The notes under the pieces are model-generated. The model saw nothing but the letters and a program-made list of their open reading frames with translations, was not told where the DNA came from and did no database searches. DNA of 64,000 bases from a virus (taxonomy: Duplodnaviria; Caudoviricetes), in IMG/VR virus record IMGVR_UViG_3300028797_000145, positions 22,892 to 86,891 of that record, one strand, 5' to 3'. Shown here in pieces: positions 5,512 through 53,590 of the stretch. Each line of letters starts with the position of its first letter. The first letter of the stretch is position 1. Position numbers and translations under genes: made by a program.

Positions 5512-5793
5512 TTACGGTGTAGACTCGATCACGCAGAATCTATTTTCACCCGATTTGCTTATGTACAAATATAACTGTGAAACAGGAACGGTATCGCCAA
5601 CATGAGACGATTCAAATCCTACATCTGAAACATAAACAGGCACATCACCCCATCTAGATTTTGCCATTTTAAGCAGTTCGATAAGCTCCGAAATGGTGTA
5701 GTGTCCTTCATTGTCCGTAAACAAGCATTCGGTTGGAACACCACTCCAGTAAGCATCGTATCCTTCTGTTATTTTAATTTTTCCGTATTCCAT
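5512..5793 (-). CDS. hypothetical protein
   Basis: ORF track; packed in operon. Confidence 0.65.
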   Translation of the reverse strand: MEYGKIKITEGYDAYWSGVPTECLFTDNEGHYTISELIELLKMAKSRWGDVPVYVSDVGFESSHVGDTVPVSQLYLYISKSGENRFCVIESTP

Positions 5794-22862: not shown

Positions 22863-23888
22863 TTAGATCAGAGTGTATAGTTTCATGCCGAAGAAAGTCG
22901 CGTTATTGCCAGAAGTTTTATCTGGAGATTTATAGTGATACCATCTAACTCCATAAACTTCTTGATGTACGGCTACCTCAAATACATTTATTGGGTATGG
23001 TAGACTTCTAGTAATCAGCAAATCCTCTACATCAATCCATTGACCACCTTGAGATGTTTGAATTTGTAATGTAAACGTCAGTAATTCATTTTGATACTCA
23101 TACCGACCAATCCACAACTTAACCTTACTAAGATTAATAGGATTTGCCAATTCATAACCGCCATAGGCATATCGCTGATCTTCGTATTCGTAATAGCTAG
23201 CGTAATTACTACTCCAACCCTCGATCATATACTGAGTGTAATCGTTGGTTAAAGCGTCATAGATCTTCGTTCCGTCATTACCGAAATGATGTTCTGTATC
23301 ATAGATTGGAGTGTCATTGGAAGTGTTGTACTCCTGAGTCGGCTTATCAACCGTATTAAATACGTACCAGTTTCCTCCAGATTTGGTATATATCTTTATG
23401 TCATACTCAGCATCTTGGGTATAAATATTACCATTATCACCAAGGCTACTATCTGGAACCGTGGTACCATAGAATGTTCCACCACCTCCTCCACCAGTTC
23501 CGCCCCCACCAGAGGCATTGCTGATGAAGTAAAATGTGTTTGGATCGTTTTTCTCATTTTGAGACAAAGCATCATACTCGTCTTGAGTAACGGTTTTGTA
23601 GATCTTAAGATCTTCAGTACTCTTATCACCTTTCAAATCAACGCCGTTAACCGAAGCAGGTGTACCAACTTCCTCCCAATTGGCAAGGACAGTATAGTCC
23701 AATGCTGTGAGACGGTATTTCTTATTCTCTGCCACAACGTATGTTTCCATACCGACATAAGCATAAGGAAATGCGCCGCTCGTAGTCAGATCGGACTTAG
23801 CAGGTACTATGGATCTTGCATCCATGGGTGCCCCAGCAAGCATCTCAATGTTAGCTGACAGGCTGTATGTTCCTTTTGTCCTTGCCAT
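22863..23888 (-). CDS. tail fibre adaptor/adhesin with C-terminal discoidin-like domain
   Basis: N-terminus paralogous to 23912..25366; VTQDEYDAL module; Gly linker. Confidence 0.65.
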   Translation of the reverse strand: MARTKGTYSLSANIEMLAGAPMDARSIVPAKSDLTTSGAFPYAYVGMETYVVAENKKYRLTALDYTVLANWEEVGTPASVNGVDLKGDKSTEDLKIYKTVTQDEYDALSQNEKNDPNTFYFISNASGGGGTGGGGGGTFYGTTVPDSSLGDNGNIYTQDAEYDIKIYTKSGGNWYVFNTVDKPTQEYNTSNDTPIYDTEHHFGNDGTKIYDALTNDYTQYMIEGWSSNYASYYEYEDQRYAYGGYELANPINLSKVKLWIGRYEYQNELLTFTLQIQTSQGGQWIDVEDLLITRSLPYPINVFEVAVHQEVYGVRWYHYKSPDKTSGNNATFFGMKLYTLI

Positions 23889-40825: not shown

Positions 40826-43800
40826 TTACCTCCTTCCACCTCTCTGGGCTCTAATCATTTTGATCCCTAATGCACGATCCATAGGATCTGCAAGACCTCC
40901 AACAACTTCACCACTGTCAAGTACGATTTGTTTGTTAAGAATCGCATCTCCTAACCTATCAAGCTTGTTTCCAAGTGCATTAATACCATTGTTAGTGGTA
41001 TCATTGTTTTTATTTTGAAGTTCCATAGACAAACGTCTACCAGCATCCTGCATATAAGCAGCTTCGCCAGCAAGTGCCAAGGAACGCTGAGATGAAAACA
41101 TGCTATTAAGCGACGAGAATCCCTGACTAACATTAGACAAGTCTAATACGGGAGTAATTGTAGGATTGAGATCATCATTAAGTAAACTGTCGGATTCAAA
41201 CAGTGTCTTCAAGGCTCTTCCAAGTGAAGGCATTTGGAAGTTTTGCATCATATCGGTTGCGTCAGACATAGTACCAAGAATATTACCCATTTTCTCAATG
41301 GATGCATTTTCGGCATAGCTATTCTCGTTAAGTCCTTTTGCAAAACCTTTATCAATCCATTCTGCTAATTTCATAGCTTCTTTGGAAGGAGATGCAATAC
41401 CGCCTTTATCTTTAGCACCTTGGAGCCAACTGCCCATTGCTCCGCTACCTGAATTGTAAAAAGCTGAAGTGTCGATGTTATTCAAGAAGCCGTCTTGAGT
41501 ATATCCAGCAAGACTTGCCATGGTTTGTGATTCGCCATTCGTAATGTTCAAAGGATCTTCAAATCCGGCAATGCCCTTCTCGGAAATGTTGGTCATTGCA
41601 TCTGGAATAGAGGAGTCATTCTCCATATCTTCTGCAGAACCACTAAGCAAACCAGTTAAGGAATTGCTCATCTTATCCTGGCTGTCTTTTGACTGGATCT
41701 TCTCAGCAGCACTATCAATAAGACCATCTGCTGTAGCCTCTCCAGCTTCCTTCATATCTTCATTATCTTTATTACTCTTAAATATGTCTTTGAAATAATC
41801 TGTAAGCTTCTTTCCAGAATTCTTCTTTGCTTTGAAACCACCTCCAAAGAAAATGTCAATCAAATCCAATGGAGCCTGTCTCATAAGCTTTGTCAATTCA
41901 GATATAACAGTCATACAGAAATTGTAAAGTGATTGCGCAAGAATCGGAACCTTCTCTGTAAGACCGTCAATCAACGTTGTAAGAATTCCAAATACAATTT
42001 CAATCAAACTCTTTGCCATCTTAGGAGCATTCTTAGCCATATGCTCAAGAAGCATGATCCATAATGTCCAAAGAGTAGATACTATCTTTTCAGCAGCGCC
42101 GAGTAATGCGTCACAAGCTGCTATTATAATTTGAGTAACGGCTTCTCCCATTGCTGGCGCTTGTGATCCTAATGTAACAATAAATGTAGCAATGGCCAGG
42201 GCAGCATCTATGGACATATAGAATATCTCTGCTCTAAATTTTTGAATTGTTTCGAGTAATGTCGTAAACGCTAAGACCACAGCATAAATACCAATGCCCA
42301 AAGCTCCAATTCCAACACCAGCAAACATTACAGCGGCACCTATAAGCATTATCGCTGCTCCTAATGCTAACAACACTGCAGCAGCCTCAACTAATCCGCT
42401 ACATATTTTTAGAAAACCAGCTAAAACAGCAAGTATTGCTGCTAGCGCGACAACGGCTTTTACTAATCCTTTTGTAGACATCATGGATAAAGTCATTAAC
42501 GGAACCATAAGCGCATTTAATGCGACCGCAAGAAGAATTAAAGATGCTGACATTATCGCAAAATTTGTCATATCGCCCATTTGATCAGCGAAAAATATCA
42601 TCGCTATCATTAATGCTAATATACCGCTTAATGCCAAAAACGCAGGACCAAGTTGATTTGTAATTGCCTGAATAGAAGCTAAAGATTGTAATGGAATTAC
42701 CAATAAATTTAACGCGACAGAAAATAAAATCAACGATGCAGCCATACCTGCAAAACTTTTCATATCGCCCATTTCAGTAGCAAAGAACATTAGGGCTACC
42801 ATCAAAGCAATAATCCCGCTTAAGGCTAAGAACGCTTCTCCTATCTTTCCAGTCATAGCCTGCATTGCGGCAATAGCTAATAAAGGAACGGTCATTAAGT
42901 TAAGAGCCACGGCAAAAATGATCAACGATGCTGCAGCTTTCATAAACCCACTATTATTTTCTTCCATTATTGCTGAAAAAGCTATTATTTCTCCAAGCAA
43001 AACAGTAATTCCAGTTATAGCTTGTATTAATTGACCACCAGCTGATATAAGAGCTAACTCAATAATTGGAATCATCATTAAGTTTAATGCTACAGCAAAT
43101 AACAAAAGCGATGCGGCTCCTTTTAAAAATTGAGATTCATTTTCTGAAAGGAAATATGCAAAATATGCAATTTCGGCCAAGACTATGGTTAGTCCCATCA
43201 AAGCAGATATTAATTGACCTGAAGCTGCTATTTTTGCCATTGAACTCAAAGCTGATGTAATTATTTTAATTGTAAATGCAATAGCTAATAAAGTGGCTCC
43301 GACTTTTGGCATATCAGTTATGTACTTTGAAAGCAAATATAGTGCGGCACCTAGCTCTACAAACATGGATGTTAAAACTCCAAATGCAGTTTCAAGTCTG
43401 TCGGGCTCTATTCTTGAAAGTTTCTTTAACGAAGAAGCTAATATTCCTACCGAAACACTCAAAAGGAGAAGAGTTGTTCCAACTTCCAAATATCCTCTTC
43501 CTCCGCCAAAGAAATATGTCTTTTCTAAAACTTTGATAACCGCTACTAATTCCCACAACAATGCAGATACAGCTGCTAAACCAGTAGTAAGACCTTCTGT
43601 ATTAATAGAAGATAAAACTAAAATCGAACCAGCTAAAATAGCCATTGTTATTGCAATTGTTTTAAGCTGATTTACTTTCATGCTCTGTGTAAATTGAGTA
43701 ATAGCTGTCGATGTACTAGCAAGTACCGTATTAAGTGATTCTCCGAGTCTGCTTACATATTTGGTTTTTCCATCACTAAGACCGAAGAAGTTAAGAAGCA

Positions 43801-45922
43801 TCTGTAATTTGTTCTTATACTGAACAAGCTTATCAATAATTAACTTAATACCAACGACCCCACCAGCAGTAGCACCAGCTCCAACAATATCTTTGAATGT
43901 CAACGACTTAAGCATGTCCATGATGCCTTTTACAGCTGGTTTAATAGCCTTAAAAGCATCTTTAACAATCTGCTTAAAGTTATTGAATACATCTCTAACG
44001 TCTGTTAAGAAGTCTTTCAAATCAGGTGATAAGTTACTGAACAAATCAGCATCTTTATTACCCTTCATGAATGCTATGATCTCGTTAAACTTCTCAACAA
44101 ATGCGTCCAAGCCGCCTTTAATTAACTCAAATATACTAATTCCGCCACCAAATACCTGATAGAATGTTCCGAGAACATCTATAAGAATAAGAAGAGCTTT
44201 AGTAACTATGTTGATTGCTATAGAAAGTAGACCGAACCAATCGATACCTTTCTTGGCTTCATCTCCATTAGCGGATGAAAACATGCTCTTAATCTTCTCT
44301 TTGATGGTTTCAATAAGCTCAGGAATGTCTTTACCAAAATTAGCCTTGAATCGTTCGTTGATTGCGTTAAGACTTTGCTCAACTTGTAATTTTATTCCAA
44401 CGAAACCTTCTTTAATCTCAGCAAGTTTCTTAGACCATTTGGTATAGACATTAAAGTTGCTGTAATACTCAGAAATCTTGTCTCCGAGATCTCCAGCCCA
44501 TCTAAAAATTATTTTGAACTTGCTAAGGATATCGGTTAACCCGGGTTTAAGGATCTGGAACAAAGTAGAAGCAGCCTTAACCACAATACCAAGCGCAGAC
44601 GCTAATCCTTTAGCAGCTTTTTCAACATTAACCAAGATCATTCCGTCTCGGTCAAATACTTCGGTATTGGTCTTAACCTTATCCAAAAATCTTTGAATAT
44701 CATTTATTACATCAGAAGGGAAAGCGGATTTAATACCAGCAAATACGGCTTTAATAACCTTACCAATATTACCAACAACCCCTCCTATAGATCGTAAAAT
44801 ATCGAGATGGAGACCTCTGCTAAGAAATTCATTAACGAACTCAAGGCCCTTCCTTAAGTTCTTCAAAGTATCCCCGATAAATTTATCCATTCCACGGTTA
44901 TCAGAAATGGAATTGAAAAACTCAACGGCATTCTTTGAAAGTGTTCCCATAATATTGGAAACATTCTCAAATATAGCATTATCTGCCAAAGACTTCTTAA
45001 ACTGATCGACCGCGCCCGTTATAGCATTAAATGTGTCTCTGGCGTACTCAAGACCAGGTGTATAGAATTCAGCACCTATTCTTGAAAGCGCTGCCTTCAT
45101 GTTTAATAATGCACCTGTGAAGGTCTTGTTTGCATCTTTCGCATGCTCCCCAAATGCATCATCCATAGCCTTGGCAAACATTTTGAAATCAATCTTACCT
45201 TTGGAAACCATCTCACGAATTTCGGCTTCCGACTTACCTAGGCTTTTTGCTAACGTCGCAGCTGCATTAAGACCTCTAGCAGAGAACTGTTGTAACTGCT
45301 GAGCATAAAGTCGACCATTACCAGCTACGGTTGTAAAGATATTGGAAATATCCTCATACGAACTGTTAGTCATCGCTGCCACACCAGATATGCCTCTAAG
45401 GGACATCTTCATTTCATCCCCAAGTTTTACCTGTGAAGCAACCAATTGGGATGCTGCCTTAGCCGCTGCATCCAAACCATAAGCCGTATCTTTTACACCA
45501 TAGTTAATGTCTTCTTTAATATCTTCCCAAGCAACACCAAGACCTTCCAACTGGAATTTTGCAGCCTCTATGTTAAGTGCTCTGTTCTTACCTCCAGTCA
45601 TGATCTGACCAATAGTAATATTAGCCAAACTCTTAGCAGCGTTGATAGCTTCGTTAGTCAAATTCTGTAATACAGTAGCTCCAACTATTCCCATTGAAGA
45701 CATTCTATATGACACCATGTCAATAGCTTGTCCAATGCCATCAAGATTAATCTTGTTCGCCATTTGGGTGATCTTCTCGAATCCTTTTAGGCTTATGTTG
45801 TTCAAGCCATTTAAGGATTTGTCGAGATTATTAATCGAATTCAGAGTAGTCTTGATACCCTGTTCAAATTTTTTGTTGTCGAATTGCATCTGGACAACTC
45901 TGTTATCGACTTGTTTACTCAT
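40826..45922 (-). CDS. tape measure protein
   Basis: 1698 aa, helical, Ala/Leu/Gly-rich; GLDAAAKAA..SGVAAM tape-measure domain. Confidence 0.95.
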   Translation of the reverse strand: MSKQVDNRVVQMQFDNKKFEQGIKTTLNSINNLDKSLNGLNNISLKGFEKITQMANKINLDGIGQAIDMVSYRMSSMGIVGATVLQNLTNEAINAAKSLANITIGQIMTGGKNRALNIEAAKFQLEGLGVAWEDIKEDINYGVKDTAYGLDAAAKAASQLVASQVKLGDEMKMSLRGISGVAAMTNSSYEDISNIFTTVAGNGRLYAQQLQQFSARGLNAAATLAKSLGKSEAEIREMVSKGKIDFKMFAKAMDDAFGEHAKDANKTFTGALLNMKAALSRIGAEFYTPGLEYARDTFNAITGAVDQFKKSLADNAIFENVSNIMGTLSKNAVEFFNSISDNRGMDKFIGDTLKNLRKGLEFVNEFLSRGLHLDILRSIGGVVGNIGKVIKAVFAGIKSAFPSDVINDIQRFLDKVKTNTEVFDRDGMILVNVEKAAKGLASALGIVVKAASTLFQILKPGLTDILSKFKIIFRWAGDLGDKISEYYSNFNVYTKWSKKLAEIKEGFVGIKLQVEQSLNAINERFKANFGKDIPELIETIKEKIKSMFSSANGDEAKKGIDWFGLLSIAINIVTKALLILIDVLGTFYQVFGGGISIFELIKGGLDAFVEKFNEIIAFMKGNKDADLFSNLSPDLKDFLTDVRDVFNNFKQIVKDAFKAIKPAVKGIMDMLKSLTFKDIVGAGATAGGVVGIKLIIDKLVQYKNKLQMLLNFFGLSDGKTKYVSRLGESLNTVLASTSTAITQFTQSMKVNQLKTIAITMAILAGSILVLSSINTEGLTTGLAAVSALLWELVAVIKVLEKTYFFGGGRGYLEVGTTLLLLSVSVGILASSLKKLSRIEPDRLETAFGVLTSMFVELGAALYLLSKYITDMPKVGATLLAIAFTIKIITSALSSMAKIAASGQLISALMGLTIVLAEIAYFAYFLSENESQFLKGAASLLLFAVALNLMMIPIIELALISAGGQLIQAITGITVLLGEIIAFSAIMEENNSGFMKAAASLIIFAVALNLMTVPLLAIAAMQAMTGKIGEAFLALSGIIALMVALMFFATEMGDMKSFAGMAASLILFSVALNLLVIPLQSLASIQAITNQLGPAFLALSGILALMIAMIFFADQMGDMTNFAIMSASLILLAVALNALMVPLMTLSMMSTKGLVKAVVALAAILAVLAGFLKICSGLVEAAAVLLALGAAIMLIGAAVMFAGVGIGALGIGIYAVVLAFTTLLETIQKFRAEIFYMSIDAALAIATFIVTLGSQAPAMGEAVTQIIIAACDALLGAAEKIVSTLWTLWIMLLEHMAKNAPKMAKSLIEIVFGILTTLIDGLTEKVPILAQSLYNFCMTVISELTKLMRQAPLDLIDIFFGGGFKAKKNSGKKLTDYFKDIFKSNKDNEDMKEAGEATADGLIDSAAEKIQSKDSQDKMSNSLTGLLSGSAEDMENDSSIPDAMTNISEKGIAGFEDPLNITNGESQTMASLAGYTQDGFLNNIDTSAFYNSGSGAMGSWLQGAKDKGGIASPSKEAMKLAEWIDKGFAKGLNENSYAENASIEKMGNILGTMSDATDMMQNFQMPSLGRALKTLFESDSLLNDDLNPTITPVLDLSNVSQGFSSLNSMFSSQRSLALAGEAAYMQDAGRRLSMELQNKNNDTTNNGINALGNKLDRLGDAILNKQIVLDSGEVVGGLADPMDRALGIKMIRAQRGGRR

Positions 45923-46296
45923 CTCTTTGTCACCTCATCCCATGCTTGATCAGCTATCATGTCAAACAACGGTTGAATAGCAGGGTTAATGTAGTCTCGT
46001 CCTTTTATGTATCTTCCTCTGGACGTTGTATGGCCATACTGCAAAATTATTGCTATAGGCTGACCATTTTGTATGTTAGTGTTATACCACGTTATGGTTT
46101 GACCCTTATTGTCTTTCTCAATAACATACTTCCAAGAAGCCGCAGTTAAGCCAGTTCTCTTAGGAGTAGCTTCTGCTAACAACTCAACTCCTAATTTTCC
46201 GTACTTATCTAACTCACTAGCACCGAAAACACCTAAAACATCCTGAAGATAGCTTCTTGTAGCCGAAAAGTCACCTTTTTGTTTAAAGGTAATCAT
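45919..46296 (-). CDS. HK97 gp10-like tail completion protein
   Basis: TPKRTGLTAASW...ILQYGH...GRDYINPA. Confidence 0.7.
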   Translation of the reverse strand: MITFKQKGDFSATRSYLQDVLGVFGASELDKYGKLGVELLAEATPKRTGLTAASWKYVIEKDNKGQTITWYNTNIQNGQPIAIILQYGHTTSRGRYIKGRDYINPAIQPLFDMIADQAWDEVTKR

Positions 46297-47003
46297 TTAA
46301 CAACCTCACAGAAGTCCAGGCTGATCCAACCAAGACCTGATTTCAATTTACCCCAACCGGATTTTGATCCATCTCCATCTTTCTTTTCGATGATGGTAAA
46401 CACTCCAGCACCGGTAAACTTTCCAGTCTTGTCATAGTTCTTTCCAGGACCTTTTCTGATGTTGAGGTTATTGATCGAAACTTTTACCTTAAACGAATCG
46501 TCTTTCTTCTCTTCGACTTTCGACTCTTCCTTTCCATTTTGAATGGATTCAGCTTCTTCAGTCTTCTTAGTTGATACTGCTTTCTTGTAAAGCTTTTGCT
46601 CTTCAGCTCTTCTCTTAACCAAACCAGATAAGACTTTGCCTCCGGCTTTATTGTAAAGAGTGATGGCGTCACCAATCTCCTCGACAGTTCTGCCATTGCA
46701 AAGAGTCTTAAGATTCTTGCTTCCGCAATTGTAAGTAAAGCTTACCAATGCATCAAACTGGTTCTGGTTGAACTCCTTGCCGATCTTAGTTACAGCATTC
46801 TCGGAAGATTGAACGTCTTTCTTGAGATACTCTTCGGCTTTCTGTTTAGTAATTGTCATACCTTCGGATACGTCGGCGCCGTAATGTCCATAGCCGATAG
46901 TCCAATATTTCTCAGTCTTAACCGGCTTGTAGGCCGTAAGCCTAAGTCCCTCATACTTCTTAATAAGGTTTAAGCCCTTTGTAGATGTTTTCATATAAAT
47001 CAC
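46293..47003 (-). CDS. endolysin: GH24 lysozyme plus SH3-like cell-wall-binding domain
   Basis: IKKYEGLRLTAY...WTIGYGH; NQNQFDALVSFTYNCG; GLVKRRAEE; LNIRKGPG...WGKLKSG.GWISL. Confidence 0.9.
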   Translation of the reverse strand: MIYMKTSTKGLNLIKKYEGLRLTAYKPVKTEKYWTIGYGHYGADVSEGMTITKQKAEEYLKKDVQSSENAVTKIGKEFNQNQFDALVSFTYNCGSKNLKTLCNGRTVEEIGDAITLYNKAGGKVLSGLVKRRAEEQKLYKKAVSTKKTEEAESIQNGKEESKVEEKKDDSFKVKVSINNLNIRKGPGKNYDKTGKFTGAGVFTIIEKKDGDGSKSGWGKLKSGLGWISLDFCEVVK

Positions 47004-47012
47004 ATCCTTTCA

Positions 47013-47573
47013 CTATCCTTTTGTATGATGCTTGGCACGCCTTGCTTTATTAAGAGCCGCATAACTAGCCGCCGTCTCTCTCTTGCTCATCTTCTTGGGC
47101 GGCGAATTCTTGATACTGCAAACCTTAATCAAAGCGAGTAAACGATTTAAATGCCACTTCTGAAACTCAACAGGAATGTTATTAGCAAACATCATGTAAT
47201 AAATCACTTCTGATGTAATAACTTCATTTCTGTAAGTTGTCTGGGCCTGCTTATTGTCACTAAACGTAGTGGCGGTCATAGCATCATTTGTATACTCATC
47301 TATTCGCTTTACCGTTTCAGTGTCAAGCATATAATAAACGTCATCTCTAACGTTTTGTGTCAACGTCATAAATTTTATGTAGTCGAGCTTCTCTTCCTCG
47401 GTCTTCGGTTCATTGGAAAGAAACGGTTTCTTCCATTTTGCTTCCCATTTTGAAATCGAGACCAAGGAATGCTCAAGAGATAGCTCAACGGGTTTTTCTA
47501 AGGTAATGAACTTTCCACTTCTCTCATCCCACAGGTCACGTGGTTGAATTGTTATTCTTAAGGGCATGCTCAC
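47013..47573 (-). CDS. tail assembly protein (second chaperone-type gene)
   Basis: LSLEHSLVSISKWE; WHLNRLLALI; position. Confidence 0.6.
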   Translation of the reverse strand: MSMPLRITIQPRDLWDERSGKFITLEKPVELSLEHSLVSISKWEAKWKKPFLSNEPKTEEEKLDYIKFMTLTQNVRDDVYYMLDTETVKRIDEYTNDAMTATTFSDNKQAQTTYRNEVITSEVIYYMMFANNIPVEFQKWHLNRLLALIKVCSIKNSPPKKMSKRETAASYAALNKARRAKHHTKG

Positions 47574-48006
47574 GTTCCTTCTTAATCTGTTCCATTACCT
47601 GCTTAGGGTCTGTAATTCCATCCGGGTACTTAGACTGGATCTCTTTAGACAGCTCCTTAGGCAAGATTCCCTGGATAAAGTTGATAAGCGTATCGGCATC
47701 GTAAAAACTCATAAACAACTCAGAGTATGCTTCGGAAGCCATAAAAACTTCAGTAGCTTCTTTACTCTTAATAAAAGAGCCATTATCAGTTCTAACACCA
47801 TAAGACAGCGCAATAAGCTTCTTAAACAACGGAAGAAGCTTTGTGTTATTCTGCTCTTCAGTAATACGCCCAATCAAGTTGGTAAGGCCTCCTTCTTCGG
47901 AATGCTCATACTCGATAAGCTCGGCCTTCGTGATATGGAAGTAAAAAGTTCGTGTGATCTGCTCTTCGGTGAACGGATCTTCATAGGTAATCTGTTTTGC
48001 AATCAT
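47536..48006 (-). CDS. tail assembly chaperone
   Basis: Follows major tail gene; TFYFHITKAEL. Confidence 0.7.
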   Translation of the reverse strand: MIAKQITYEDPFTEEQITRTFYFHITKAELIEYEHSEEGGLTNLIGRITEEQNNTKLLPLFKKLIALSYGVRTDNGSFIKSKEATEVFMASEAYSELFMSFYDADTLINFIQGILPKELSKEIQSKYPDGITDPKQVMEQIKKEREHALKNNNSTT

Positions 48007-48052
48007 AATCTTAGTCCTTTCTTTTAAAAAATATCCTCCTTAGAACGAAAAT

Positions 48053-48096
48053 GCGGCAGAGCCCGAAAGGAGGATGCCGAAACACGACCCTGCCGC
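48053..48096 (-). terminator. branched terminator-like structure after major tail extension
   Basis: GCGGCAG/CTGCCGC stem with two inner mini-hairpins, then ATTTT on minus strand. Confidence 0.5.
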
Positions 48097-48136
48097 AGAA
48101 AATTATCAGGTTCCTTTAACTACCATGATGCACCTC

Positions 48137-48535
48137 TCATCCCTGGCCCTGAGGAGCCAACGTAAGATCTGTAAGTCTGTATACCTTCCTTACAGTAGCG
48201 TAATCTTGTTTCTCAGCCACGACTGTAATAGTCTGCTGATCCTTATCTCTAATCAGAAGAACAACGATTCCGTCATCATCCAGAACAACCGGATTGGTTA
48301 CGGTTACTGTGATCTTTGCATCGGCTACGGCACCAGTATCAAAGTGCAGAACAATATAATGACCAACCTGCTCAGCTGGATTGCTAGAGAATCCAGTATA
48401 GTCATCAATATAGTTCAACGTACCGCTAATAACGTTGTTCGATCCGATCTGAATATTTGACTGGAGATCTGTTACATCCTTTCCGAACAGATCTACGCTA
48501 GTCGAAATATTGCTATCCGCCGATAAGCTCAGTGA
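48137..48535 (-). CDS. -1 frameshift extension (Ig-like?) of major tail protein
   Basis: -1 frame open across the MTP stop; no own RBS/ATG; paralog of 49886..50287. Confidence 0.75.
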   Translation of the reverse strand, partial: SLSLSADSNISTSVDLFGKDVTDLQSNIQIGSNNVISGTLNYIDDYTGFSSNPAEQVGHYIVLHFDTGAVADAKITVTVTNPVVLDDDGIVVLLIRDKDQQTITVVAEKQDYATVRKVYRLTDLTLAPQGQG

Positions 48536-49233
48536 AAAAACTGATTGTAGAGATCTACCAAATCCTCAGGAAGAGGCATGGAAGCCACTCCAGATACCGG
48601 ATCAGAAGAGCCATCTCCATAAAGAAGATTCTCAAGCGCAGTAATAAATGCTGCGCCAGTCTCCGTGGTAAATCTCGTAGTGTCGATTTCGATATGAGCT
48701 GTAGGATTATCCAGGGTATCGCCACCTTCGATCGGGGTGGTCTCGAACTCATAACTCATAGTGATCGCATCCGGACTGTCATTAATAGTCTGGTATGCTT
48801 TCTCAGAAGGTGATGCTGTAGCATTGTATACAAGGTGAATCTTATAGCCATGATCCAGGCCATCGATATCGTTACCGACCTTGGTTCTATAAGAAAGACC
48901 AAATGCCTTTCTCTTCTGACCGGAAGCTACGATACCAGGAGCACCTTCTACGAGGTTAGCCTCACCGTTATTCTGCTTGAATTCATCGGGATACGTGTAG
49001 CACTCGATAGTTCCGCCATAAGTCTCAGCAGATCTCAGAGTAGCGTACTTTCTGTTATCAGCCCAAAGGTCGTTAGCCTCTGCTCCACCAGGATTAGAGT
49101 TAACGGCAGTAAGGCCATTCCAAGCGACGCCGTTGGTGTATTTATTATCTACGATCTGGTACAGAACACCTCTGTCGGTACCCGCCTCGAAGAATCTTTC
49201 ACCACTAGCATCCCAAGCGATTGTAAATGCCAT
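48529..49233 (-). CDS. major tail (tube) protein
   Basis: GTDRGVLY, GVAWNGLT, LWADNRKY, TYPDEF, FGLSYRT. Confidence 0.9.
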   Translation of the reverse strand: MAFTIAWDASGERFFEAGTDRGVLYQIVDNKYTNGVAWNGLTAVNSNPGGAEANDLWADNRKYATLRSAETYGGTIECYTYPDEFKQNNGEANLVEGAPGIVASGQKRKAFGLSYRTKVGNDIDGLDHGYKIHLVYNATASPSEKAYQTINDSPDAITMSYEFETTPIEGGDTLDNPTAHIEIDTTRFTTETGAAFITALENLLYGDGSSDPVSGVASMPLPEDLVDLYNQFFH

Positions 49234-49244
49234 TTTAGTACCTC

Positions 49245-49556
49245 CTACCATGTAATGGTGAAAACATCATGATACAGATTATCAGCTCTGTAAGTCCGGT
49301 CAAATCTTATAAGCTCGAAAGCATCTAAGATGTCATCCGGTAAAGTGGAATCCGCATCTTGATGAACAATAGTTACTGAATACTGCTTATGCTTTAGGTA
49401 TGATCCATTATCTGCATAGATCGGGTCTATCCGATCAAGCTCATACAAAATGCAAGGGTAATGAAGTTGGATAGTTTCCGGAGGCTGATAATAGACATAC
49501 CTGCTACCCATAAACTCTTCAAGAGCCGTCTGTAGGGTTAATCGGGTCTTTTCCAT
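49245..49556 (-). CDS. tail terminator / tail completion protein
   Basis: VYYQPPE..LHYPCILY; position. Confidence 0.7.
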   Translation of the reverse strand: MEKTRLTLQTALEEFMGSRYVYYQPPETIQLHYPCILYELDRIDPIYADNGSYLKHKQYSVTIVHQDADSTLPDDILDAFELIRFDRTYRADNLYHDVFTITW

Positions 49557-49885: not shown

Positions 49886-50287
49886 TCAACCCTGGCCGTT
49901 CTCTTCACAAGTAAGACCACTCAGGCTGTATACTTTGGTAACGGATTCATATCCTTCTTTGCTCGCCACGACTGTTAAGGTCTGCGTGCTCTTATCCCTT
50001 ACACGGAATACAGCGATTCCGTCGGAGTCCAAAGTGGATGTGTTATCCATCGTTGCTGTGATGGTAACACCGTCCTCATCCGGAACTTCTGCATGGAATA
50101 CAAGGTAATTACCTTCCTGAAGATCAGGATCACCAGAGAATCCGGTGTAGTCATCCACATACTTCAGGGTACCGGTAATACCAGTTCCAGCACCGTTCAA
50201 CGAAACTCCGCTCTGAAGATCCGTTACGTACTTGCCGAACAGATCCTCAGACTCGGAAATGTTGAAGTCAATGGATAAGCGATTTAA
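49886..50287 (-). CDS. -1 frameshift extension (Ig-like?) of major capsid protein
   Basis: A_AAC_CCT heptamer immediately before capsid TAA; -1 frame open for 133 codons. Confidence 0.8.
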   Translation of the reverse strand, partial: LNRLSIDFNISESEDLFGKYVTDLQSGVSLNGAGTGITGTLKYVDDYTGFSGDPDLQEGNYLVFHAEVPDEDGVTITATMDNTSTLDSDGIAVFRVRDKSTQTLTVVASKEGYESVTKVYSLSGLTCEENGQG

Positions 50288-52296
50288 GGGTTTAAGTTAC
50301 CATCGGTGGAGTACACGGTCATAGCCGAGAAAGGCTTAACCAGTGCACCGGACATTCTGGTCTCGATCAGGTACTTCTCCTGGTTGTAGTCGATATCGAA
50401 GTCATCGAAGTAGTTGATCTCGCCACCCTTGTCAGTACCTACATTGTAATCCTGCAGGTTTACGATCACGCCGATAAGAGCCTTGTCTGCAGCGTCGATC
50501 TCAACGGTCTGGTTCTCCATAACCTCAACAGTTACAATCTCCTTAACGCGAAGCTTGGTAGCAAGCTCTGCCTCAGTCTTGAACAGAGGCTGACCCATCT
50601 TGTCTTCAAGCAGCAGCATCTCGGTAAGCACGTCTTCGGTAGTGAAGAAGGTCGGGTTTCCAGAACCCTTGTAGTTCTTACGAGCACGAATAACAGCCTT
50701 GATTACATTGTTGTAATCGCCGTTGATCGTTACCGGAACCTTAACATTGAACAGGTCAACATCGGAAGCGATAGGACGAATGTTCTGAGGATTGATCTTA
50801 TCTGCGGATACGTTGCTGCGGCCATCACCGATCAGGATCGCACGAGCGATTTCCTCATTCAGCATTACGCGCATCTCAGCCTTGATCCAGTTAACAACAT
50901 CGAAGTCGGTGATATCGACAATGTTGTCACGGTCCATCTTCTGTTTCTTGTAGATCGTGGTCGGATCGGTCTTTCTCTTCAGAGTAGAGAATACCTCGTC
51001 GATCTTCTCAGCACCGGTAACATAACCTTTAGCTCTTGCATCCTCAGCAGTGATGTCTGCGAATACAGACTTAATACGGCTAAACGGGCTCTTATGAACT
51101 GCGGACATAACCTTGGTTACCCAGGTCTGATCTCTGGAAATCCACTCAGGAGTGTTGCTAAGAGATCTGTAATCCGGGAACAGCATGGAAGGATCGTTGA
51201 AACCATAGGTCAGGTGCCCGGTAGGGGTCTCCATACCATCGGTAGGGGTGGAATGTGCCAGTACTTCCTCTTCACCATAGAAATCGTTGATCGTATCCTT
51301 CAGGGATCTGCGGTCATGCTTTGCGGCCTCCAGGATCTCCATTCTGTCGCTGTGGCAAAGGAAATCATCCTGTGCATAGCCGCTTTCAAAAATGTTGTGC
51401 TTCATTTCTTCGTCTCCTTCCTCGTCATCTTCATCTTCGTCGGTTACACCCTTCTCTTCAAGAGCCATACCGATAAGTGCATACATTGCATTCTTCTGTT
51501 CCTCGTTCATGGTATCAACCACGTCTTTGAGGGTCTTTTCATTGTCTTCATCTGCATGGGCAAGTGTCTTACTCATCTGTTTTTTACCTCCGTTTTTGTC
51601 TTCGTCTTCGTCGGATTCTTCCTCGACCTCGTCTTCAGGCTCATCCTCCTCTTCAGACTCTTCAACTTCTTCATCTTCCTCATCGGAATCTTCTTCGGTC
51701 TCTTCGTCTTTCTTAGGAACGGCCTTGATAGTCTTGGTTTCTTCCTTCTCGACTTCTACTTCTTTGACTTCGTCATCCTCATCGTCCTCTTTCTTTTTTT
51801 CTCCATCACCCTCGCAAGAGTGATAAAGCTCAAGAGGCTCTCCTGTAAAGATAACTCCGATCTCATCGTCAAAAGGTTCACCATGTTCAAGAGCTACGCG
51901 GTTAACTGTATCTTGATCGATAAACGCTCCGGGGTTTGCTCCCGCGAGAACCACACTAACCTCTCGAACCATTCCATGAAGGACATTCGAACCTTTCTGG
52001 CGTAACTGATTTGCGAATATGGAAAGTGAAACCACGTCACCGTGCTCGACTAAATGCTTCGTAGCCTGGCCCTTAGCACTGTCGTTAAACGAACAATACG
52101 CGTAAAGACCTTCATTGCGATTCTCCAAAACAGCATGACCTAAAACCATGTCAGGGTCATCATGAATATGACTCCAAACAAGAGGTACTGTCTTGCCATC
52201 ACAATCTTTGAACGCATCTTTGATGATGGTTCTACCATCGGAGCACAGCATGTTGTTTCGACTAGCCCATCCGCTAAAGTCAAACTTCATTGCCAT
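50284..52296 (-). CDS. fused prohead protease - acidic linker/scaffold - HK97-fold major capsid protein
   Basis: VPLVWSH..LGH...LSI...REVSVVLAGANPGA (HK97-type protease); E/D-rich linker; capsid core; GAGGAGG before ATG at 52296. Confidence 0.9.
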   Translation of the reverse strand: MAMKFDFSGWASRNNMLCSDGRTIIKDAFKDCDGKTVPLVWSHIHDDPDMVLGHAVLENRNEGLYAYCSFNDSAKGQATKHLVEHGDVVSLSIFANQLRQKGSNVLHGMVREVSVVLAGANPGAFIDQDTVNRVALEHGEPFDDEIGVIFTGEPLELYHSCEGDGEKKKEDDEDDEVKEVEVEKEETKTIKAVPKKDEETEEDSDEEDEEVEESEEEDEPEDEVEEESDEDEDKNGGKKQMSKTLAHADEDNEKTLKDVVDTMNEEQKNAMYALIGMALEEKGVTDEDEDDEEGDEEMKHNIFESGYAQDDFLCHSDRMEILEAAKHDRRSLKDTINDFYGEEEVLAHSTPTDGMETPTGHLTYGFNDPSMLFPDYRSLSNTPEWISRDQTWVTKVMSAVHKSPFSRIKSVFADITAEDARAKGYVTGAEKIDEVFSTLKRKTDPTTIYKKQKMDRDNIVDITDFDVVNWIKAEMRVMLNEEIARAILIGDGRSNVSADKINPQNIRPIASDVDLFNVKVPVTINGDYNNVIKAVIRARKNYKGSGNPTFFTTEDVLTEMLLLEDKMGQPLFKTEAELATKLRVKEIVTVEVMENQTVEIDAADKALIGVIVNLQDYNVGTDKGGEINYFDDFDIDYNQEKYLIETRMSGALVKPFSAMTVYSTDGNLNP

Positions 52297-53590
52297 TTTG
52301 AATTTCCTCCTCAGTATTAAATTGTTCTTCCGGGTACTCTTCTTGATACTCTTCGTCAGGTATGTCATACATTGCGTTAGGATCTTCACCAGTTGGTTCG
52401 CTAAGGTTGCTATTCCTCAACTCATCAGCCTTAGGATCGCTAGATGGCTTCATACCGATAACCTGACGAATCTCGTTAGAAGTCATGATCTCGTTCCGTG
52501 TAAACTTATCTGCAATCTCAGCAATCTGTGATACAGGTACCAGCTTAAACGGATCCCTGAAGAATTCTACGGACTGGCGTGGTGATCTGGAACGAGCTGT
52601 CTTAGAGAGGAACTTACGTTTCATCTCATCAGTAATAGCAGAAAGGATTGGCTCAATTGTACGATTGTAATAATTCATCATCGTATTCTCATCCGCAGTT
52701 CCATCTAATATTCCTTGTGTTAAACCTAACTGGCTGTAAAGCATACTCGTCAAGTACTCTACTTGGGACATTAGATTGTTCTCGATCGGACGGTTGAGCT
52801 GTGTTACTTTCTCAGTTCCATCTGTATACGCGATACCGTATTTCGAGCTTTCCAATTGCGCCTGGATGTCTTCCATCCTAGACTTTACGTACTCTCTTTT
52901 GGCCGGAGTTTTGATTTGGTACGGCAATTGGATTATTAAATCAAGCTTGTTGGCGCCAGTCTGTTCATCGATGGCATCCATTAAGCTTAACTTACGAATA
53001 AGTCTTTGCATGGTGGAATTAGGCTCATTCATTACTGAATATAGCGGATTTTCGATAATAGCCACCATGTGTTTGGGAAGTACTATGGGCTCACGTTTTC
53101 CGGTAAGCTCGTTGTAAACCTCCAGTCTAACTGTCTGCGGGAACCATTCGGTTACCCTTGCAGTCCTCATCGACAAAATATCGTATGAGTCAGATCTTGT
53201 TGGATTGCCTTTAGTCTCGACTGGAACCAAGGCTACACAACCTTCGTCCAAAAGGGACATTACCGCATCTTGAATAAATGCTCGCCCAACTTGATCAATG
53301 TTTGCTTCTACTGATAGACAGTTATTAAGTCCGGAATCTACGTCTTCCAAATATCGATCATTGTCATCGAGTCGTACGTGCTTGATGTCGATAGCAGCAC
53401 AATCCATTGCTATACGGTTATAGATTGAAACCGTAATGGATCTTTCAGCACCTCTAAATATTCGAACTCGATCTGGTCGATAACTTGATCCATAACTTGT
53501 AAATGAAGATTCATAAATTGTCGGATCTTTGTTACTAAAAAAAGCGTTCCAGGCGTTTTTAATCCTGGAACCAATAGTTACATCGCTCAT
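52280..53590 (-). CDS. portal protein
   Basis: SIYNRIAMD, NIDQVGRAFIQD, GIAYTDGTEK, MTSNEIRQ. Confidence 0.9.
   Translation of the reverse strand: MSDVTIGSRIKNAWNAFFSNKDPTIYESSFTSYGSSYRPDRVRIFRGAERSITVSIYNRIAMDCAAIDIKHVRLDDNDRYLEDVDSGLNNCLSVEANIDQVGRAFIQDAVMSLLDEGCVALVPVETKGNPTRSDSYDILSMRTARVTEWFPQTVRLEVYNELTGKREPIVLPKHMVAIIENPLYSVMNEPNSTMQRLIRKLSLMDAIDEQTGANKLDLIIQLPYQIKTPAKREYVKSRMEDIQAQLESSKYGIAYTDGTEKVTQLNRPIENNLMSQVEYLTSMLYSQLGLTQGILDGTADENTMMNYYNRTIEPILSAITDEMKRKFLSKTARSRSPRQSVEFFRDPFKLVPVSQIAEIADKFTRNEIMTSNEIRQVIGMKPSSDPKADELRNSNLSEPTGEDPNAMYDIPDEEYQEEYPEEQFNTEEEIQNGNEV

Follow-up and report, generated by a model that had tools for sequence, protein, structure and literature searches.

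The window analysed here, a stretch of 64,000 nucleotides (nt) covering positions 22,892 to 86,891 of the IMG/VR record IMGVR_UViG_3300028797_000145 (a rumen phage of the Caudoviricetes), carries on its minus strand a major tail (tube) protein gene that is followed in the -1 frame by an open reading frame (ORF) for a second domain (Table 1). The tail protein matched the profile of a siphophage major tail family, and a Pfam search returned no family for it. The first ATG of the listed gene (49251) overlaps the ribosome-binding site of a second ATG at 49233 (ATGGTAGGAGGTACTAAAATG, 49233-49251, minus); this second ATG is preceded by GGAGG, the alignments of the homologues begin there, and it is probably the true start, giving a protein of 234 residues. 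The translation ends in YNQFFH, the last codons reading CAG TTT TTT CAC TGA (48543..48529). The -1 frame is open from 48565 down to a TGA at 48139-48137, and the 37-nt overlap of the two frames is the sole place where a -1 shift connects the tail gene with the extension. Using the motif definitions and ranking of PMC4066793 (the tetramer Z_ZZ.N and the heptamer X_XX.Z_ZZ.N), we found a shift-prone motif in the 0 frame within this overlap, namely the U_UU.U tetramer inside UUU UUU. Runs of six or more T occur 12 times in the 57 kb of ORF sequence of the window, which corresponds to approximately 0.008 expected in the overlap. Read in the -1 frame after the second UUU, the sequence gives SLSLSADSNISTSVDLFGKDVTDLQ...APQGQG over 132 codons, consisting of a linker, SLSLSADSNISTS, and then a predicted immunoglobulin (Ig)-like beta-sandwich domain; the predicted fusion junction peptide is ...YNQFFSLSLSADSNISTSVDLFGK / ...DLYNQFFSLSLSADSNISTSVDLFGK.

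Table 1. Features of the tail and capsid loci, in positions of the window
Feature	Position	Strand	Remarks
Major tail (tube) protein gene, 0 frame	48529..49251	minus	phrog_2645, E 1e-81
Overlap with 0 and -1 frames both open, 37 nt	48529..48565	minus	bounded by TGA 48568-48566 (-1 frame) and TGA 48531-48529 (0 frame)
Proposed -1 shift site G_UUU_UUU	48535..48541	minus	U6 48535..48540; U_UU.U tetramer 48535..48538; followed by CAC, UGA
Tail extension ORF, -1 frame, 132 codons + stop	48137..48535	minus	phrog_31690, E 3.6e-20; model pLDDT 88.5
Terminator-like hairpin	48044..48097	minus	12-bp G+C-rich stem, large loop, then UUUUCGUU; found by folding
Protease-spacer-major capsid fusion gene, 0 frame	50284..52389	minus	Pfam Phage_capsid + Peptidase_S78; phrog_3270, E 1e-207
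Canonical X_XXY_YYZ heptamer A_AAC_CCT	50287..50293	minus	directly abuts the capsid stop
Capsid extension ORF, -1 frame	49886..50287	minus	phrog_31690, E 1.1e-19; paralogous domain copy

The complete record, 86.9 kb in length and judged complete, contains exactly two copies of this domain, the second lying behind the capsid gene. The capsid gene ends GGT AAC TTA AAC CCT TAA, and its -1 frame is open over 136 codons (49886..50296) with no start codon ahead of the domain. Alignment of the two extensions over 130 residues gives 52% identity (E 2e-42), and each terminates in GQG, in keeping with the paralogy claimed in the preliminary description of this locus, which had also given the end of the tail gene and the 132-residue reading to 48137 exactly. 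Its observation that the two genes use different sites was likewise borne out, as a heptamer next to the stop is found in the capsid gene and a U run in the tail gene.

The tail extension maintains an intact frame over its 132 codons and keeps all of the residues that are invariant in the family. Over positions 48000-49400, it was compared with contigs from public runs of three studies in all: X1, which is probably the source of the record itself, X3 (spanning 48229-49400, with 33 substitutions and no gap) and X4 (48408-48719, with 8 substitutions and no gap). In X3 and X4, variants of about 97% identity from other studies, the T6 run, the CAC codon and the TGA are all unchanged, with zero indels. 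Of the 14 variant sites in the extension, 12 affect the third position of a -1-frame codon (P 8e-5) and 10 leave the amino acid unchanged; in the tail gene, all 18 variant sites are third positions with synonymous changes. Because the substitutions in the extension concentrate at the third positions of the -1 frame, the comparison indicates that the extension is translated in this frame and is under purifying selection.

The tail extension has no usable start codon. In the -1 frame, the first ATG, GTG or TTG past the stop at 48566 is a TTG at position 48418, which lies 40 codons into the domain and past its near-invariant DLFGK, DLQ and GTL motifs, and no Shine-Dalgarno sequence was found ahead of the site or of the CTG at 48532. 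An independent start for the extension was rejected for this window, as none of the three codons precedes codon 40 of the domain. A terminator-like hairpin is positioned 3' of the extension and 5' of the ribosome-binding site of the next gene; a simple terminator scanner passed over it because its loop is longer than 8. No comparable hairpin lies between the tail stop and the extension. The placement of this putative terminator behind the extension, and not behind the tail stop, fits a single expression unit for the two frames.

The domain belongs to phrog_31690, a family annotated as of 'unknown function'. At E <= 1, Pfam returned nothing for the domain apart from noise, so it falls outside Big_2, I-set and FN3, and a profile search against the PDB returned intimin alone, at E 0.17. 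A word search found approximately 160 homologues, nearly all of which had been called as free proteins of about 125 amino acids, and a full profile search retrieved 1280 representative clusters at E <= 0.001 among 1.84 billion proteins. The AF2 model of the domain (mean confidence as given in Table 1) is all beta, a nine-stranded sandwich. Its structural matches are of the Ig type but generic, including ICAM D1 (VIA Z 6.8) and Ig I-set and filamin domains. Foldseek gave no match for the domain in the PDB at E <= 0.001, the best being E 0.018 and the C-terminal domain of lambda gpV standing at rank 37, while a structure search of BFVD returned three uncharacterised phage proteins and no others. 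As judged from the model, the domain is an Ig-like beta sandwich. In addition, proteins of 1100-2700 residues contain it as four to nine tandem repeats along with Flg_new, Big_2 and SLH domains, and a Baseplate_J protein has it at the C-terminus (P0128-P0133, P0217 and P0156); the multi-repeat proteins are presumably cell-surface proteins of Firmicutes.

The architecture expected of an extended tail protein was modelled on a relative, L039, in which the domain is fused in frame. Its model comprises a tube domain at the N-terminus, a short helix and a beta sandwich at the C-terminus, and the segment LPLPEEVIELL of the helix aligns with MPLPEDLVDLY of the window tail protein. The fold of the tail protein is predicted through this homologue, whose model matches T5 pb6 (E 5.6e-6) and the tube proteins of Douge, lambda and SPR. 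The tail tubes of lambda and T5 are decorated by the C-terminal Ig-like domains of gpV and pb6.

To place the two junctions among those of relatives, 80 IMG/VR loci with the domain were surveyed, each copy being located along with its preceding gene. The domain was found in the -1 frame behind homologues of the window capsid gene in 45 cases and behind homologues of the window tail gene in 23; in nine (L039, L043-49 and L053) it formed an in-frame fusion with the tail protein, and in a further 25 it followed genes that BLAST did not recognise. Most of the latter that were scanned are major head proteins of phrog_10, 544, 422, 29 and 267, and their junctions are again mostly -1. After removal of near-duplicates, 58 junctions were compared. 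The heptamer A_AAC_CCY is in frame at 30 of them, mostly abutting the stop, with four placed one codon before it and one placed three codons before it, and six more have other canonical heptamers (A_AAT_TTT, G_GGA_AAC, C_CCA_AAA, T_TTA_AAG and A_AAA_AAT). An in-frame X_XXY_YYZ heptamer is thus found at 36/58 junctions, compared with a background of 0.0028 per codon in this window. C_CCA_AAA, used by the relatives L056 and L059, is presumably also the head site of phage A2, which is considered below. Junctions similar to the window tail site are those of L014, L019, L021 and L042, with U_UUU directly before the stop, and that of L036, with G_GTT_TTT CAG and a stop. In three phrog_422 capsid genes (L024, L029 and L030), the gene ends CCC TAG or CCC TAA and the domain lies in the +1 frame.

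The carriers of the domain comprise at least six major-head families, two tail-tube families, a Baseplate_J protein and bacterial surface proteins. In P0125, which belongs to a different tail protein family (phrog_88), the domain is fused in frame through a linker, PSLSLAADIATGVDLLGK, that is homologous to the SLSLSADSNISTSVDLFGK found just past the U run in the window, PSLSLAAD of the former matching SLSLSAD of the latter; therefore the first codons past the shift site are read as protein elsewhere. Tail-gene homologues were drawn from 70+77 homologous loci, and because 128 of the 130 that could be evaluated have no such domain, as is also the case for L156, a relative with 67% identity in the tail protein, the domain is, on this comparison, a dispensable and optional add-on to the tail gene. 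Two of the domain-less tail genes, L087 and L086, end TCT AAC CCT TGA and TCC AAT CCC TGA, which resemble shift junctions, and they may carry a different out-of-frame extension.

We propose, at a probability of about 0.72, that -1 recoding on the U6 run yields a minority of tail-tube subunits with a C-terminal Ig-like domain, because the extension is under selection in the -1 frame and lacks a start, a rare T6 run lies in the overlap, relatives attach the same domain at comparable junctions, and there are precedents in other phages. The slip and its efficiency, the incorporation into tails and the function of the domain are what we infer from these observations. A few of the ribosomes translating the tail-tube gene would slip back one base on the U6 run, two codons before the stop, with the peptidyl- or aminoacyl-tRNA-Phe shifting from UUU to the overlapping UUU of the U_UU.U tetramer. 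The shifted ribosomes would bypass the UGA and continue for 132 codons, and the product would be a tube subunit of about 365 residues (about 40 kDa), reading ...DLYNQFF-SLSLSAD... and ending in a short linker and the Ig-like sandwich. Such subunits would co-assemble with the normal subunits of 234 residues, so that a few to a few dozen domains could project from the surface of the tail, and slippage at the A_AAC_CCU heptamer would supply the capsid protein with the paralogous domain. Placement of the same domain on head and tail, as put forward in the preliminary description, agrees with the relatives, which attach it to both by -1 sites or by in-frame fusion, with the slip in the window itself as the proposed step.

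A tape measure of 1698 residues should correspond to some hundreds of tube subunits per tail, at which even a shift of about 1-5% would place between several and a few dozen domains on each tail. By analogy with other phages, the domain would likely serve in weak multivalent adhesion to glycans of the cell surface or the environment, and the binding to mucus or surfaces suggested earlier is plausible on the same analogy. Head and tail surface domains present at sub-stoichiometric levels are thought to tune adsorption and persistence on host glycans or mucus.

Several observations weigh against this proposal. G_UUU_UUU is not a canonical X_XXY_YYZ heptamer, and a tandem slip of both UUU codons would leave the P-site tRNA paired with GUU. 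U_UU.U ranks as the third most shift-prone tetramer in E. coli (PMC4066793), but such tetramers give 0.26-5.6% in E. coli with a pseudoknot and approximately background without one (PMC4066793). With a stimulator defined as either a Shine-Dalgarno-like sequence upstream of the site or, 5-9 nt downstream of it, a hairpin or pseudoknot, no downstream stimulatory structure was found, the first 66 nt folding like shuffled sequences (z -0.37; pseudoknots were not searched). The sole nearby feature that could be a candidate stimulator is the stop codon one codon past the U run. A 9-bp hairpin (AGAUCUGUU/AACAGAUCU), the core of which is formed by two Asp-Leu codon pairs, begins 38 nt downstream of the tail site and was rejected as a general stimulator, as this distance is too great and the stem is broken in many relatives. 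Since U_UU.U is weak and no stimulator was found, the frameshift yield at the tail site is probably low, and the idea in the preliminary description that the domain would coat the whole virion appears optimistic for a bare tetramer of this kind.

The relatives supply further objections. Beyond the variants of about 97% identity, no closer relative with the same U6 site was found; scans with the tail protein of genome, viral and metagenome collections gave no relative closer than 75%, and an annotated phage collection gave no close relative. The nearest tail gene, that of L020 (75% identity), has A_AAT_TTT and a stop, and its extension is 47% identical. The U6 site, whose conservation the preliminary description proposed to check, is unchanged in the two close variants and replaced in L020, while sites of the U_UUU-stop and G_GUU_UUU kinds are seen at junctions elsewhere in the family. 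In the tail junctions of L055, L067-L071 and L079 (near 5714-5730) and of L057 (near 1808-1841), the sequence is GAC CTC CCT (or TCT, CTT) TAA TGA; in the L055/L067-71/L079 lineage, the heptamer is gone, with at most a C_CCU tetramer left, and an ATG in the frame of the domain overlaps the stop (TAATG), so that in this lineage the domain may be made separately by termination-reinitiation.

In both copies of the domain in the window, the sequence encoding DLFGK..V(T)DLQ folds into a perfect hairpin of 9-11 bp (minus strand, 48465-48494 and about 50214-50248; AGATCTGTT...AACAGATCT), and the 96-nt capsid stretch containing it gives a z of -4.6. The stem is broken in many relatives, and the hairpin may therefore simply reflect its GAT-CTG codon pairs and carry no signal.

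The same fusion (QFF-SLSLSAD) would also result if RNA polymerase added one U on the T6 run, so that a fraction of the mRNAs with U7 would encode the two parts in frame. Slippage by bacterial polymerases usually needs runs of eight to nine bases or more, for which six bases are short. Homopolymer runs are nevertheless known slippage sites, which is one of the reasons noted by Sharma et al. for the avoidance of A7 and U7 in every frame. Most relatives, however, use heptamers such as A_AAC_CCT, and because these hold no homopolymer run, the sites of the relatives fit slippage by the ribosome and not by the polymerase. We therefore regard transcriptional slippage as unlikely at the tail site.

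It is also improbable that translation of the extension alone, whether after re-initiation or at a non-canonical start, gives a free product of about 13 kDa which associates non-covalently with the tail or head. Such a product would account for the calling of the homologues as free-standing proteins, for the ATG that overlaps the upstream stop (TAATG or TGATG) at about a dozen junctions of relatives and, within these, for the persistence of the ATG beside a decayed heptamer in the L055/L067-71/L079 lineage. In the window, however, the absence of ATG, GTG and TTG reaches 40 codons into the domain with no Shine-Dalgarno sequence before the CTG, the capsid copy of the same genome likewise has no start, and the linker past the U run is homologous to that of the in-frame fusion in P0125, all of which speaks against a free product.

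The extension could further be a silent remnant of a former in-frame or heptamer-driven extension that has lost its expression signal, with the U6 run being incidental. The weakness of the motif, the failure to find a stimulator and the dispensability of the domain in nearly all tail-gene homologues are what such a remnant would lead one to expect. We nevertheless give this explanation little credence, as the 132 codons are intact with every family-invariant residue, the substitutions follow the pattern of purifying selection and the rare T6 run falls exactly within the 37-nt overlap. Finally, a homopolymer error in the record, a metagenome assembly, with T7 as the true sequence and an ordinary in-frame fusion of the kind seen in L039 and L043, was rejected as very improbable because the contigs X1, X3 and X4 of three studies all have T6, with zero gaps across the site. 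Recoding at the U6 run, with a low predicted yield, is thus the reading that we carry forward.

The origin of the two copies is less simple than the preliminary description had supposed in calling the domain duplicated between the two genes. In a maximum-likelihood tree of 55 non-redundant domains, from which a motif filter kept out a few copies, the L020 tail copy among them, the tail-linked copies have at least three origins among the capsid-linked ones. The window capsid copy pairs with that of L020 (79% identity), whereas the window tail copy forms a long branch of its own, and the capsid copy of the same genome is not its sister. The best matches of the tail copy are domains of other phages (62% with L050, 66% with P0005 and 72% with P0004), compared with 52% with its own capsid copy, and the L020 tail extension is far more divergent from it than the tail genes are from each other, at the identities given above. 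In L011 and in the L052/L054/L070 lineage, by contrast, the tail copy groups with the capsid copy of the same phage, and duplication within the genome is likely there. For the window phage, the position of the tail copy in the tree and its closer matches in other phages suggest that an exchange of modules is no less likely than a simple duplication.

A tentative extension of this view, and one we hold to be doubtful, is that the domain travels between unrelated capsid and tail genes as a recoding cassette composed of heptamer, stop, linker and domain (A_AAC_CCY-stop-...DLFGK...), in which case the U6 run of the window would be a substitute site re-invented locally. Were this so, one recombination event would suffice to equip any structural gene with a surface domain at sub-stoichiometric levels. 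Alternatively, the same heptamer could have been selected convergently in each of the recipient genes.

The surroundings of the tail gene include two further genes at 47013-48006 (minus), phrog_4282 and phrog_4338, which follow it in the position of the tail assembly chaperones G/GT. They overlap by 38 nt, and the second lies in the +1 (or -2) frame and not in the usual -1 frame, with starts at GTG 47573 and ATG 47567. An endolysin- or amidase-like gene (phrog_7, E 6e-52) at 46293-47003 (minus) is located within the tail module, between the genes in the chaperone position and the 1698-residue ORF of tape-measure size (40826-45922). No tRNA genes were found in the window.

Beyond the window, the domain matters for annotation. 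An unnamed but large family, common in phages of the rumen and gut, joins the classic set of Big_2, FN3 and I-set, and gene callers systematically misannotate its members as free hypothetical proteins of 125 residues. Recognition of the junctions described here, A_AAC_CCY with a stop, the U run, and CCC with a stop (+1), would correct many phage annotations. In addition, the family would offer a natural series in which one domain is expressed through a -1 shift, a +1 shift, an in-frame fusion or, possibly, re-initiation, and these four modes could be useful for understanding how recoding sites arise.

Decoration of head and tail by domains added through frameshifting is already known in principle, from A2, the Listeria phages, SPP1 and the Ig-like domains discussed by Fraser and colleagues, and the biology of the window locus itself is expected rather than surprising. 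The closest parallel is the Lactobacillus casei phage A2, in which two -1 shifts in the major head and major tail genes give Ig-like extensions (Garcia 2004 and Rodriguez 2005, cited in PMC5009743). To that extent, A2 and the window phage are alike: both are siphophages with two -1 shifts, proposed ones in the window, near the 3' ends of the major head and tail genes, and in both a longer second form would carry an Ig-like extension. The A2 head form is reported to be essential. The two phages differ in that the window domain belongs to no Pfam Ig family and in that the window tail site is a U6 run and that of A2 a heptamer with a nearby stem-loop. The Listeria phages A118, A500 and PSA combine recoding in both the coat and the tail gene of one phage (Zimmer 2003 and Dorscht 2009, cited in PMC5009743); there, the tail genes use a +1 shift, and the sites and domains are others. 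The coat protein of T3 is extended likewise (PMC5009743).

SPP1 offers a comparison for the tail tube. Its gp17.1* arises by a +1 shift at CCC_UAA, at a short:long ratio of 3:1, is non-essential and carries an FN3 domain, and the phage also uses a UUUUUUC -1 site (Auzat 2008, cited in PMC6316719). As is proposed for the window, recoding immediately ahead of the stop lengthens the tube protein C-terminally and adds a beta-sandwich domain of adhesion type, about 90-130 residues in length. The SPP1 tubes are mixtures of short and long subunits; the window has a putative -1 shift on U6 and a different domain. The SPP1-type +1 site (CCC_TAG/CCC_TAA), which is also of the Listeria phage PSA type, does occur in the relatives L024, L029 and L030. 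In the lactococcal 936 group, the frameshift-made tail extensions TpeX carry modules that bind host glycans and vary in copy number per tail (PMC6669499); there the shift comes after an in-frame adhesin domain, and both the site and the domain are different.

The novelty lies in the family of sequences itself and in how common it is among phages of the rumen and gut, as well as in the recurrence of the A_AAC_CCY-stop junction across unrelated recipients and in the weak U-run site. Fraser, Yu, Maxwell and Davidson (2006/2007) reportedly described Big_2, I-set and FN3 domains on the capsid, tail and fibre proteins of phages, often added by frameshifting and including the C-terminal domain of lambda gpV, T5 pb6 and T4 Hoc. 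The domain described here behaves like a member of that class, being promiscuous, C-terminal, in or out of frame, Ig-like in its predicted fold, dispensable in most relatives and shared with bacterial surface proteins, yet it is a separate sequence family, phrog_31690, with generic fold matches, no Pfam, PDB or named relative in our searches, and an A_AAC_CCY-stop junction that recurs across unrelated recipients.

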